Translations under genes and position numbers: made by a program | Shown: piece by piece, positions 34,981 to 41,237 of the stretch | How positions within the stretch are numbered: the stretch's first letter is position 1 | Layout of the letters: the number at the start of each line of letters is the position of its first letter | Origin: Candidatus Dormiibacterota bacterium | GTDB lineage: Bacteria; Chloroflexota; Dormibacteria; Aeolococcales; Bog-877 | Length of the DNA: 64,000 bases | Assembly: GCA_963701235.1 (NCBI GenBank) | Contig: OY969577.1 | Coordinates: 1,573,363-1,637,362, forward strand | Direction of reading: 5' to 3' | Notes under the pieces: generated by a model | Databases searched by the model: none | What the model saw: the letters and a program-made list of their open reading frames with translations, nothing else | What the model was told of the DNA's origin: nothing

Positions 34981-37638
34981 TCAGCCCCCAACCAACGTCG
35001 GGTCAGCCTGCCTTTCTGCGGGGTCGTCTTGGCCGGGAACTGAGCCCTGGCCTCGGCGGAGGCTCAGGCCGTCCGACCCGGCATCCACGACGATGGTGTC
35101 CCCCTCGCCATAATCGCCCTGTAGCACCGCAGTGGCGATGCGATCGCCCAGCTGCCTCTGTATGACCCGGCGCAGCGGGCGCGCCCCATAGACGGGGTCG
35201 TATCCCTGCTCGGCGAGCCAGGTTCTGGCGGCGGGCATCACCTGCAACTGCAGGCGGCGGTGGGCGAGGCGCTCCTCCAGCTGCCACAATTGGAGCTCGA
35301 CGATCCGCTCCAGCTGTGCCTGGTCCAGTCGGTGGAAGAGGATTACGTCGTCGACCCGATTGAGGAACTCGGGACGGAAGTGCTGGCGCAACTCCGCCAT
35401 GACTTCCGACTTGGCGGCCTCCTCCTGCTCCCGGCTAGGGTGGTCGGGCAGCGCCGCGATCACGGGACTGCCCAGGTTGCTGGTCATGACCACGACGCAG
35501 TTCCGGAAATCGACGGTCCGCCCCTTGCCATCGGTGAGCCGCCCGTCCTCGAGCAGCTGGAGCAGGATGTTGAACACATCCGGGTGCGCCTTCTCGATCT
35601 CATCCAGCAACAGCACCGCATAGGGACGCCGTCGCACCGCCTCGGTCAGCTGCCCGCCCTCGTCGTATCCGACGTAACCGGGGGGGGCGCCCACCAGCCG
35701 GGCCACGGCGTGCTTCTCCATGTACTCGCTCATGTCAAGCCGGACCATGGCGTCCTCGCTGTCGAAGAGGAACTCAGCCAGAGCCCGGGCCACCTCGGTC
35801 TTGCCGACTCCGGTGGGCCCCAGGAAGATGAACGACCCCAGGGGACGGCGGGGATCGTTGAGTCCCGCCCGGGCCAGGCGTACCGCACTGGCCACGGCTG
35901 CTATGGCCTCGTCCTGGCCCACCACCCGCTCGTGGAGACGGTCCTCCATCTGCAGCAGCTTGTGCATCTCGCCCTCGAGCATGCGCTGGACCGGGATCCC
36001 CGTCCAGCGCGCCACCACCTCGGCGATGTCCTCCTCGCCGACCTCCTCCTGCAGCAGCGGGGTTCCCCCCTGGCCCTCGGCGAGCCGATGCTGCTCCGCC
36101 TCCAGCCGCTGGCGCAGCTCGGTCAACTTGCCGTAGCGCAGCTCGGCCGCCTTGGCGAAGTCGGCCATCCGCTCGGCCCGTTCGGCCTCGAAGGTGGTGC
36201 GCTCAATCTCCTGCTTGGTGGCTCGGATCTGACCGATGTCCGCCTTCTCCTGCTCCCAGCGCTGGCGCAGCCCCACCGCGCTCTCCTGAAGTTCCGCCAG
36301 CTCGCGTTCCAGTGCCTGCAGCCGCTCGGCTGAGGCACGGTCGGTCTCCTTGCGCAGCGCCTCGCGCTCGATCTCCAGCTGTCGCACTTGGCGCTCCACC
36401 GCATCCAGTTCCAGCGGCATCGAGTCGATCTCCATTCGCAACCGGGAGGCGGCCTCGTCGACGAGGTCGATGGCCTTGTCGGGCAGGAAGCGCCCGGAGA
36501 TGTAGCGGCTGGAGAGCACCGCCGCCGCCACCAGCGCCGAGTCCTTGATCCGCACCCCGTGGTGGACCTCGTAGCGCTCCTTGAGCCCACGCAGGATGCT
36601 GATCGTGTCCTCGACCGAGGGCTCACCGACCTGGACCGGCTGGAAGCGGCGCTCCAGGGCAGGGTCGCGCTCGATGTACTTGCGATACTCGTCAAAGGTG
36701 GTTGCGCCGATCGCGCGCAGCTCACCCCGGGCCAAGGCCGGCTTGAGCATGTTGCCGGCATCCATGGCTCCCTCGGCGGCGCCGGCACCGACCAGGGTGT
36801 GGAGCTCGTCGATGAACATGATGATCCGGCCGTCAGAGCCGGTGACCTCCTTCAGAAGTGCTTTGAGGCGATCCTCGAACTCGCCGCGGAACTTGGTCCC
36901 GGCGATCAGGGCGGCAAGATCCAGAGCCACGACCCGCTTGTCCTTGAGGGTTTCGGGCACGTCGCCACTGGCGATCCGCTGGGCCAGCCCCTCGACGATG
37001 GCGGTCTTACCCACCCCGGGATCACCGATCAGGACCGGGTTGTTCTTGGTCCGTCGCGAGAGCACCTGCATGGTGCGGCGGATCTCCTCGTCGCGGCCGA
37101 TCACCGGGTCGAGCTTGCCCTCCCTCGCCTGCTGGGTGAGGTCGCGGGTGTAGCGCTCCAGCACCTGGAACTTGCTTTCAGGGTTGGGGTCGGTGACCTT
37201 CTGGCCCTGACGGAGCGCCTCCAGGGCCGAGCTCAGCCGTTGTGGGGTAGCTCCCAGCTGGGCCAGGATGCCCGCCGCCGGTCCGCCCCGCCGACTGGCC
37301 AGGGCCAGCAGCAGGTGCTCGGTGCTGCAGTACTCATCGCCCAGCTTGCCCATCAGCACGAAGGCCTGATTGAGAACATCCTCGAGTGCTGCGGATATCC
37401 GGGGGCTAGCTCCCTGCTGCTTGGGCCGGCTCTCGAGATCGGCGAACAGGCGCGAGCGCACCTGACCCGGGTCCACCTCCACCTGGCGCAGCAGCGGCGA
37501 AACCACCCCGTCGGTCTGGTCGACCAGCGCTGCTAGGAGATGCTCGGGCTCGACCTCGGGGTGCTCGAGCTCGCTCGCCAGCTCCTGGGACTGCTCCAGA
37601 GCCTCGCGACTGCGCTGCGTCAGCCGGTCAAGCTGCAT
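34981..37638 (-). CDS. clpB: ATP-dependent chaperone ClpB
   Basis: 885 aa. Clp N-domain repeats, two AAA modules with Walker A ([16 protein letters not shown]), a middle coiled-coil, and the sensor-2 region. Confidence 0.92.
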
Positions 37639-37709
37639 GCGCCACCTCCCGATCCGATCTTCTCACAGAGTTTTTTTACCCGCGCTGCGGAGCCTGGAAA
37701 CCGATCAGC

Positions 37710-38672
37710 TCAGGACGCCAGGAACTCCGTGATCAGTCCGGCGGTGCGCTCGGCCTGAGTGGCGGGGAAGAGGTGACCGGCATCCGGTACCACCTCCAGC
37801 CTGATCCCGGGGTAGTAACTGAGTTGGGGAGCCGCGTCTCGGAGCAGGAGCTGGCGGTCCTCGCTGCCCCATATCACCAGCACCCTGCCGGACAGCAGTC
37901 CCAGGGCGGGCAGCAGTTCCGATTCCGAGCGAAGGCGCAGCGGTTGGAACAGGCGGCTCACTAGAACGAGGTCGGAACCGCTCCCGAATCGCCTTCTCAC
38001 CAGCCGTGCGTAGGGATCATCGCTCCAATTGGCGTCACCTCGAGCGCTGCCCGCTAAGGTCAGCCTGCGCGAGAGGGCCAGCAGATCCATGGTTCCAGGG
38101 AACAGCGCCAGATTCCACTGGAGCGGGATGCGACGGCGGAGTCCCAAGGGGCTGAGCAGGACCAGCCTTCTCACCCGCTCTTGGTTGGCCACGGCGAATC
38201 CGCCTGCGACGAGGCCTCCCAGCGAGTGGCCCACCAGGTCGAACTCGGCGATCCCCAGCTGATCCACCACCGCCGTGATCGCCTCAGTCCAGGGAGCAAC
38301 GGGATGGCCCCTGAAGGCCACAGCATCGCTGAGCCCGCTGCCAGGCAGGTCGACCGCCACCACCCGATGACGGTGGGCCAGCTGGGCCAGCAGGCCGGGG
38401 AAGTCCCCCACCGAGGCGCCCAGTCCGGGAACGAAGACCAGCGCGCTCGCTCCTGCACCCCCGACCAGAACGTGGACCCTACCGGCCGGGGTGTGGACAT
38501 AGCGATGGTCAGCCACCAGCCCAACCGCGTCGAGGCGTCGGTCTAGCGCCGACTCCAGCTCCGCCATCGGGGGGTCCGAAACCGCGGCGCGGCGAGCCCA
38601 TCCCACCAGGGCGACGTAGCCGCAGACCGTGAGCCCAAGCCCGATCGCAAGATCAAGCTTGGGTCGCTTCAC
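37710..38672 (-). CDS. alpha/beta-fold hydrolase, membrane-anchored
   Basis: GHSLGG nucleophile elbow and N-terminal TM helix. The GTG start overlaps the dnaK stop (GTGA). Confidence 0.6.
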
Positions 38673-40626: not shown

Positions 40627-40645
40627 GGTGCCAGCCTGCGGCACC
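40627..40645. promoter_or_regulatory. inverted repeat in the dnaK 5' region (candidate operator)
   Basis: GGTGCC-agcctgc-GGCACC on the plus strand, about 30 nt upstream of the dnaK start on the coding strand. It is not a canonical CIRCE or HAIR element. Confidence 0.25.
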
Positions 40646-40718
40646 GCTAGAGCTACCCTACCGCAGCCGGGCACCGCCCAAACGCGTGTCCATCTCCCCA
40701 TCCCACCCCCGCTCTCCG

Positions 40719-41237
40719 GTGTTCGATGATTCCAGCGTGCAGTGGACGAATCCCAGTCCCCGCCCGCGCTCCAGGTGGCGCTTGCGAACGCTCGCGGGTG
40801 CCCTGCTGGTGGGTCTGGTCGCCGCCCTGAGCTTGGCGACCACGCGCCCGCCGGAGAGCGCCAATGGCCTCGGCATCCTGCCCAGAACCCAGTCCCTGCT
40901 GGAGCAGAGCGGAGTCACCTTGCATACGCCTCACCGATCGGCCCACGTCAGCGCGGCTCAGGCCGAATCGGCGGCCACCGCGGGCCAGTCCGGGGCGCTG
41001 GTGGACCAGGTTCTGCTCGCGGTCGCGGTTGGCTCCCGAGGCTCAGCCATCTCGCCCCCGGGAAAGCTCTGTTGGGTGGTCTTCCTCAACCCCGCCGCAG
41101 CGGAGGCGACCAATCCGCCGGCGCCGGGTGTCATCCATATGGACACGGTGCTGGTCGACGCCCACACCGGCACGGTCATCGAGGGCTTCATCTCCTTCGG
41201 CAGTACCACGCCCAACTCCAAGGTCGGCAGCGAGTAG
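40719..41237 (+). CDS. hypothetical secreted/membrane-anchored protein
   Basis: In-frame GTG after the region that overlaps dnaK. Has a TM or signal segment (LAGALLVGLVAALSLA). The upstream part of the track ORF is antisense to dnaK and probably not coding. Confidence 0.3.
   Translation: MFDDSSVQWTNPSPRPRSRWRLRTLAGALLVGLVAALSLATTRPPESANGLGILPRTQSLLEQSGVTLHTPHRSAHVSAAQAESAATAGQSGALVDQVLLAVAVGSRGSAISPPGKLCWVVFLNPAAAEATNPPAPGVIHMDTVLVDAHTGTVIEGFISFGSTTPNSKVGSE

Follow-up and report, generated by a model that had tools for sequence, protein, structure and literature searches.

A membrane-anchored alpha/beta hydrolase overlapping dnaK and preceding clpB in a probable primary chaperone locus of Candidatus Dormibacterota

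In actinobacteria, the genes for the Hsp70 chaperone DnaK and its partners are arranged as dnaK-grpE-dnaJ-hspR, and clpB is placed under the control of the repressor HspR, acting via the HspR-associated inverted repeat (HAIR). In Thermus thermophilus, both chaperone genes are part of one cluster of the order dnaK-grpE-dnaJ-dafA-clpB. Here, we are discussing the dnaK locus in a 64,000-nucleotide stretch of contig OY969577.1 from a Candidatus Dormibacterota genome (the “window”, meaning this stretch at its full length), in which dnaK is followed by a gene for a membrane-anchored alpha/beta hydrolase and by clpB. This locus shares with the actinobacterial system the same two heat-shock chaperones encoded on one strand, and with the Thermus cluster the linkage of dnaK and clpB in the same orientation. 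However, unlike the actinobacterial operon, it is devoid of grpE, dnaJ and hspR within 64 kb as well as of a HAIR element, and its promoters look sigma-factor-controlled rather than repressor-controlled. While the intervening genes in Thermus encode co-chaperones and an assembly factor, their place is taken here by the membrane hydrolase, and clpB has a predicted promoter of its own.

With moderate confidence, we regard this as the main DnaK/ClpB protein-rescue locus in a lineage-specific layout, equipped with SigB/SigF-like promoters and with a membrane esterase or lipase that is translationally tied to DnaK. According to their open reading frame (ORF) positions, the three genes follow one another head to tail on the window's minus strand, with dnaK (38669..40594) encoding a canonical Hsp70 chaperone of 641 amino acids, the second gene (37710..38672) a membrane-anchored alpha/beta-fold serine hydrolase of 320 amino acids, and clpB (34981..37638) an AAA+ disaggregase of 885 amino acids. 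The start of dnaK is assigned to the ATG at 40594 and not to the GTG at 40618 of the ORF as listed (38669-40618), because ATGGCCAAGACC and the Shine-Dalgarno motif GGAGG 12 nucleotides (nt) upstream (40607..40611, minus strand) are invariant in 14 related loci; the sequence farther upstream of GGAGG diverges among these loci, and the public gene call agrees with a 641-amino-acid protein starting at 40594. The junction of dnaK and the hydrolase gene reads AAG GAA GTG TGA AGC, with GTGA (38669..38672, minus strand) being common to the GTG start of the hydrolase and the TGA stop of dnaK. Between the hydrolase stop (37710) and the ATG of clpB (37638) there are 71 nt. Both the overlap and the short distance to clpB on the same strand had been described in an earlier note made from this sequence, and the coordinates bear them out.

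That note had placed the locus in an actinobacterial frame, which proved to be wrong. A metagenome-assembled genome of Candidatus Dormiibacterota encodes a protein with 100% identity to the hydrolase, and related species-representative loci are likewise labelled Dormiibacterota. With a Dormibacterota host, the dnaK-grpE-dnaJ-hspR/HAIR arrangement is, therefore, the wrong layout to expect; the separation of dnaK from grpE and dnaJ is common in many phyla outside Actinobacteria. The absence of grpE, dnaJ and hspR beside dnaK, which had been remarked on before, extends to the whole 64 kb, where no sizeable ORF has a Pfam match to GrpE, DnaJ, HrcA, MerR/HspR or a sigma factor. A tblastn search for J-domains gave no match in the window or in any of the loci, and no gene for a MerR or other helix-turn-helix (HTH) protein is present in or beside the dnaK-hydrolase-clpB cluster of the window.

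Both chaperones are readily identified. DnaK passes the equivalog models NF001413 (1008 bits; cut-off, 648) and TIGR02350 (983 bits; cut-off, 822), matches the Pfam family HSP70 with 874 bits over model positions 2-599 of 599, aligns full-length to solved DnaK structures and retains the usual C-terminal tail. ClpB passes TIGR03346 (1349 bits; cut-off, 1232; model positions 1-852 of 853) and carries an N-domain, two AAA+ modules, a long middle domain and a D2-small domain (Pfam Clp_N, AAA, AAA_lid_9, AAA_2 and ClpB_D2-small). Across the phylum, identity to the window proteins amounts to 87-99% for DnaK and 80-95% for ClpB. Because the equivalog cut-offs are passed and conservation is of this degree, DnaK and ClpB are probably the primary chaperones and not a specialised second set.

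The order dnaK-hydrolase-clpB on one strand is present in every Dormibacterota contig with enough flanking sequence, which corresponds to about 14 distinct loci (L001-L003, L088-L091, L093-L097, L099-L101 and the window), with the scan of genome contigs yielding at least three of these (L001-L003). The arrangement had been considered unusual and coupled from the window alone; its recurrence in all related genomes examined indicates that the hydrolase is not a chance neighbour. At 42-85% identity to the window protein, the hydrolase is conserved far less than DnaK and ClpB. About 45 orthologues are found at E < 1e-50, followed by a cliff to E ~1e-23, where generic alpha/beta hydrolases set in. 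The majority of the orthologues are unlabelled metagenome proteins; those carrying a taxon label are all from Dormibacterota except for one labelled Nanopelagicaceae. As judged from these labels, with the one exception, the hydrolase family is confined to Dormibacterota and, thus, lineage-specific. In the outgroup neighbourhoods that were checked, dnaK is not located beside the nearest non-Dormibacterota homologues of the hydrolase, and the searchable literature contains no description of the dnaK-hydrolase-clpB arrangement and nothing useful on Dormibacterota chaperones. The genome from which the window derives encodes a hydrolase paralogue of 52% identity (P0037) at an unrelated locus; no dnaK is beside it, and nearby genes include hsp20, 7 kb away, and clpC.

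Several individual loci deviate in detail. In L088 (5903-9341), two tandem copies of the hydrolase gene are followed by an oppositely oriented gene for a membrane acyltransferase (Acyl_transf_3) and then by clpB, a neighbour which hints at an action of the hydrolase on acyl groups of envelope components. In L003, the hydrolase gene and clpB are separated by a glyoxalase-like gene and by a small ORF of the HTH type. This ORF (10306-10626; 106 amino acids) encodes an excisionase/MerR-like HTH protein, ends 2 nt before clpB and overlaps the clpB promoter; it is present in L003 only and may be a remnant of a mobile element. In L002 (6242-7881), the match to dnaK is broken into three pieces lying in different frames and that to clpB is fragmented as well, owing to assembly frameshifts or to the genes being pseudogenes; the metagenome locus L096 has the same leader sequence as L002 with an intact dnaK.

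The overlap of dnaK and the hydrolase gene is the most telling feature of the locus with respect to coupling. Of 12 distinct loci, 11 have an xTGA overlap in which the hydrolase begins with a weak start codon, GTG or TTG, that is built from the last base of the final dnaK valine codon and the TG of the TGA stop. This valine codon is GTG in seven loci, GTT in four and GTC in one. Elsewhere in dnaK, GTG and GTT together account for 49% of the valine codons, and GTT alone for 7%; a codon-usage test returns P ~0.003 for the overlap in 11 of 12 loci and P ~0.009 for the four GTT codons, with both values treating loci as independent that are only partly so. By this test, the predicted start-stop coupling of dnaK and hydrolase is under selection. 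A distance of 1 nt separates the purine-rich AAGGAAG from the hydrolase start codon (3 nt in the case of its AGGA core); this is too short for the normal spacing of a Shine-Dalgarno sequence and, therefore, re-initiation is favoured. From the layout of the junction, we infer that the hydrolase would be produced by termination-reinitiation at the dnaK stop. The N-terminus of the hydrolase is conserved as protein, with basic residues, the pattern K-L-x-L-A-x-G-L-G-L...G-Y-A-A-L-V-G and, then, R-R. Since this conserved N-terminus is modelled as a helix spanning residues 5-28, the internal Met36 is not the start of the hydrolase. An internal methionine start, by which the earlier note had allowed that the coupling might be undone, is thereby set aside; the upstream GTG start is real and the coupling stands.

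The hydrolase matches the Pfam families Abhydrolase_1 and Abhydrolase_6 and passes no curated NCBIfam model. Among its orthologues, the residues Ser150 (in the motif G-H-S-L-G-G), Asp272 and His300 are invariant, and the transmembrane segment is conserved. An AlphaFold (AF2) model with a predicted local distance difference test (pLDDT) score of 86 consists of a transmembrane helix (residues 5-28), a juxtamembrane helix (residues 36-49), the core fold and a four-helix cap; the cap or lid region includes a disordered, indel-rich loop with variable insertions and low model confidence. The top Foldseek match of the model is PlaF (PA2949; PDB 6i8w), the transmembrane-anchored phospholipase A1 of Pseudomonas aeruginosa; its transmembrane-juxtamembrane helix covers residues 1-38, its triad is S137/D258/H286, and its catalytic domain is periplasmic (PMC9132575). 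With PlaF and human ABHD6, the hydrolase has in common a length of about 320 amino acids, a single N-terminal transmembrane helix continued by a juxtamembrane helix, and a helical cap. The Ser-Asp-His triad of PlaF is found at the same spacing (S-D and D-H distances of 122 and 28 in the hydrolase, and of 121 and 28 in PlaF), and the location of the PlaF catalytic domain on the outer face is also predicted for the hydrolase. In contrast, PlaF is not linked to chaperone genes, the identity between the two proteins is only about 20%, and a phospholipase role of the hydrolase would be by analogy. The resemblance to transmembrane-anchored lipases such as PlaF and ABHD6 appears to be one of architecture only. 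By the same analogy, the protein may be a PlaF/ABHD6-like membrane esterase or lipase, with its substrate and its relevance to stress being likewise conjectural.

Over 21 orthologues, the flanks of the transmembrane helix carry net charges of +2.3 on the N-terminal side and of -0.9 on the C-terminal side, which suggests an N-in/C-out orientation of the hydrolase with the catalytic domain outside the cytoplasm. With this predicted topology, the catalytic domain could not touch DnaK or ClpB, and the link between the proteins would be one of co-expression.

Other enzymatic identities were tried and rejected. The top sequence matches in the PDB are the carbon-carbon (C-C) hydrolases HsaD and BphD, at E ~1e-27 and over the N-terminal half only. 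The C-C hydrolase family is characterised by the motifs G-N-S-x-G and H-W, for which the hydrolase has GHSLGG and H-L-[FL]-P; hence, in difference to HsaD, BphD and MhpC, His-Ser and His-Leu are found in place of Asn-Ser and His-Trp. The assignment as a meta-cleavage-product C-C hydrolase was also discarded on the basis of the curated models (HsaD, 77 bits versus a cut-off of 400; BphD, 46 versus 462), as were those as BioH, MenH, haloalkane dehalogenase and proline iminopeptidase, all scoring far below the curated cut-offs.

Upstream of clpB, all 13 distinct loci have the motif GTT[T/G/C]-N15-17-GGGTA at a distance of about 38-41 nt from the start codon, with a variable spacer sequence between the two conserved boxes; in the window, it reads GTTT-N16-GGGTA (37677..37701, minus strand). 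This indicates that clpB has its own conserved, predicted promoter in the 71-nt gap and is, therefore, more than the third member of a single operon. Of the dnaK-hydrolase-clpB cluster proposed in the earlier note, the gene order holds, but not the notion of clpB as a mere operon continuation. Upstream of dnaK, GTTT-N16-CGGTA (40653..40683, minus strand; GTTT at 40680-40683) is conserved in 14 loci, with the flanking intergenic sequence diverging, and is the predicted dnaK promoter. The -10 region of this promoter is embedded in a near-invariant 16-nt block, GGCTGCGGTA[G/C]GGTAG (40653-40668, minus strand; alignment of the 14 loci), holding a tandem GGTA-N-GGTA. The conservation of this block exceeds the needs of a -10 box, the clpB spacer is without a counterpart, and the block may be an additional protein-binding site.

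Both promoters are reminiscent of those recognised by SigB (Bacillus, Streptomyces) and SigF (Mycobacterium), with which they share the -35 element GTTT, a spacer of 15-17 nt and the -10 element GGGTA. Described consensus sequences are GTTT-N14-19-GGGTA for SigF of M. smegmatis (PMC4694148) and GTTTAA-N12-14-GGG(A/T)A(A/T) for SigB of B. subtilis and Streptomyces (PMC8346170). At clpB, the agreement is perfect in 13 loci; dnaK deviates from the pattern by a single base. We infer that both promoters may be served by a group-3, SigB/SigF-like general-stress sigma factor and not by a repressor, an assignment by consensus match only, with the consensuses coming from Mycobacterium and from Bacillus and Streptomyces. 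In difference to the described systems, the scans of the window yielded no cognate sigma factor; to our knowledge, dnaK and clpB are also not among the classic SigB/SigF targets in model organisms. Neither a sigma-70 consensus promoter nor a convincing intrinsic terminator was found in 34700-40900, with terminator-like matches being at chance level and inside genes.

In support of this view of transcriptional control, the classical repressor sites are missing, as had been stated previously for the region upstream of dnaK and now holds for the whole window at up to three mismatches. The sole HAIR match (CTTGAGT-N7-ACTCAAG) in the 64 kb at this threshold falls within a gene, at 44423, and is no more than chance would yield. 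For the controlling inverted repeat of chaperone expression (CIRCE; TTAGCACTC-N9-GAGTGCTAA), the window contains no match; the dnaK leader has a 7-of-9 right half-site, CAGTGCTAC, without the left half.

The dnaK leader also contains the inverted repeat GGTGCC-N7-GGCACC (40627..40645, minus strand), close to where the dnaK mRNA presumably begins. Its presence, reported in the earlier note, is confirmed, but it does not qualify as a conserved operator, since its sequence varies between genomes. A stem-loop of 6-9 bp occupies the same position in 12 loci with differing sequence, and in L093 and L090 G-C pairs are changed to A-T on both arms. The repeat was, hence, rejected as a sequence-specific repressor operator. 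It was equally rejected as a well-supported RNA structure, given weak z-scores for stability versus shuffled sequences (mean, -1.2; window, -0.3) and the failure of RNAalifold to return a consensus structure for the dnaK leader. An RNA thermometer was dismissed as well, the unpaired probability of the Shine-Dalgarno sequence ranging from 0.2 to 0.8 among orthologues without consistent opening between 15 and 55 °C. The repeat is at most a 5'-proximal, positionally conserved stem-loop, which perhaps stabilises the dnaK mRNA.

Taken together, we envisage that ribosomes terminating at the dnaK stop would restart on the hydrolase gene, the output of which would be low and in a minor, constant proportion to that of DnaK. 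Both promoters would be read by a group-3 stress sigma factor of the SigB/SigF kind, which implies positive control as opposed to repression by HspR at HAIR or by HrcA at CIRCE. With its catalytic domain on the exterior side of the cytoplasmic membrane, the hydrolase would have lipids of the membrane or envelope as its substrates, in the manner of a PlaF/ABHD6-like esterase or lipase. What connects it with the chaperones would be co-induction under stress, uniting membrane remodelling with protein repair, and not a physical partnership, and grpE and dnaJ would be expected elsewhere in the genome.

A number of observations weigh against this picture. The hydrolase gene and clpB are 1.7-2.7 kb apart in L003 and L088, with other genes in between. 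The topology of the hydrolase derives from the positive-inside rule only, and two arginines follow the helix. The -10 box of dnaK is CGGTA instead of GGGTA and is also readable as a housekeeping TAnnnT box, and the Pfam scans revealed no sigma factor or anti-sigma gene among the window ORFs. Furthermore, the upstream neighbours (MaoC, ThuA/GFO, GFO, a GH5 cellulase and a small unknown protein) are equally syntenic; the adjacency is, therefore, partly a matter of slow rearrangement and weak evidence of a shared function. The hydrolase gene might, accordingly, be a hitch-hiker that was inserted between dnaK and clpB in the ancestor of the phylum, borrowing the transcription and translation of dnaK for a function unrelated to stress or protein quality control. 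Such an origin would be compatible with a neighbourhood that is syntenic throughout, including unrelated sugar-metabolism genes, with the much faster evolution of the hydrolase (42-85% identity) in comparison to its neighbours, with a lid of variable insertions and low model confidence, and with the paralogue at an unrelated locus of the same genome. It is more difficult to reconcile with a start-stop overlap that is maintained against codon bias, with the retention of both copies of the duplicated hydrolase at this site in L088, and with the invariant catalytic triad, which argues for an enzyme under selection at this position. In itself rather unlikely, the passenger gene nevertheless remains a substantial alternative. 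It is likewise only tentatively that we extend our preferred reading to the hydrolase being a working part of the heat and proteotoxic stress response, fixed to DnaK by re-initiation and remodelling lipids, in a locus driven by a SigB/SigF-like factor.

The earlier note had suggested that DnaK and ClpB could form an additional, specialised disaggregase module to which the hydrolase belongs as its own partner, which would imply a canonical dnaK-grpE-dnaJ set elsewhere. The lack of co-chaperone genes within 64 kb and the conserved, tight coupling of the hydrolase would agree with this view. However, specialised Hsp70 paralogues are usually divergent, whereas DnaK and ClpB of the window pass NF001413, TIGR02350 and TIGR03346, respectively, are 80-99% identical across the phylum and, hence, conserved well above the hydrolase; moreover, DnaK keeps the standard C-terminal tail, dnaK genes apart from grpE and dnaJ are generally known outside Actinobacteria, and the predicted orientation of the hydrolase domain is away from the cytoplasm. 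We consider a specialised paralogous module improbable. Similarly, the hydrolase could be a peptidase, either an S33-like aminopeptidase or a Hip1-like protease, that would serve as a membrane-bound degradative arm for the protease-less ClpB/DnaK pair and dispose of peptides or of membrane proteins that have misfolded. For such an enzyme, being expressed together with chaperones would be functionally sensible, a weak match (1e-8) to the Pfam family Hydrolase_4, “serine aminopeptidase S33”, is present, and there is a precedent in Hip1 of Mycobacterium tuberculosis, an alpha/beta-fold protease acting on the chaperone GroEL2. On the other side, the proline iminopeptidase model is hit with 19 bits only (cut-off, 168), the best matches are esterases and lipases, and the catalytic domain is probably extracytoplasmic, all of which renders a peptidase very doubtful.

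Our preferred reading of the locus concerns three genes; further features of their surroundings are described in the following. Divergently from dnaK, a small membrane protein is encoded on the plus strand (40719/40782-41237, according to gene calls) as a neighbour, and not as a demonstrated part, of the system. It comprises 151-178 amino acids with an N-terminal membrane segment, its position is kept in every Dormibacterota locus examined, and it has no match to a Pfam or NCBIfam family. An intergenic region of about 190 nt is common to this gene and the dnaK promoter.

The relaxed promoter motif GTTT-N15-17-GG(G)TA occurs five times in the window versus 0.7 expected. Two copies in addition to those of the chaperone genes are at 15545-15568 and 16212-16236 (both on the minus strand), with one extra copy lying about 195 nt upstream of a gene for a metallo-beta-lactamase-fold protein (14475-15350, minus strand). 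In the same genome, a perfect 10-bp palindrome, CTTGATCAAG, is located between a GGGTAG -10-like box and the Shine-Dalgarno sequence of hsp20 (L081, 3357-3366); CTTGATCAAG resembles two HAIR half-sites without a spacer.

Directly downstream of clpB, near-identical assemblies of one species diverge in their DNA (L087, 14101-20963, versus L085/window, 27710-34570), with a transposase and two integrases in one assembly and unrelated genes in the other. Integrase and HTH_17 genes downstream of clpB are also present at L089 (10991-14000) and L091 (12354-14240), and this region looks like an integration hot spot. At a greater distance, the window contains genes for a DnaE-type polymerase (55737-59120) and a Y-family-like IMS protein (62147-63388) as well as a small ORF (63385-63990); this segment (55737-63990) resembles an imuA-imuB-dnaE2 mutagenesis cassette that is interrupted by a DUF429 gene and ftsH (59872-61872). 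A methyltransferase at about 45957-46714 (L085, 1959-2716) is called as two proteins of 157 and 95 amino acids and is a single 252-amino-acid gene in two sister assemblies; a frameshift in the window sequence is the probable cause. A second, unrelated alpha/beta hydrolase is encoded at 9925-10863 (minus strand) beside an acyl/acetyl-CoA synthetase-like gene; a phage-type integrase is located at 8779-9705.

Members of the Dormibacterota abound in soil but have not been cultured, and the control of their chaperones has so far been undescribed. The promoters of the locus suggest control of dnaK and clpB by a sigma factor rather than by a repressor. If the hydrolase is a mere passenger, the locus would represent a taxon-specific gene order, and the lesson would be that actinobacterial expectations had been misapplied. 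If, on the other hand, the coupling reflects function, it would point to protein repair and membrane maintenance being connected under stress, and, should the stress-response reading be true, this would constitute a previously undescribed architecture of a core chaperone regulon in a phylum noted for its persistence in poor, dry soils.

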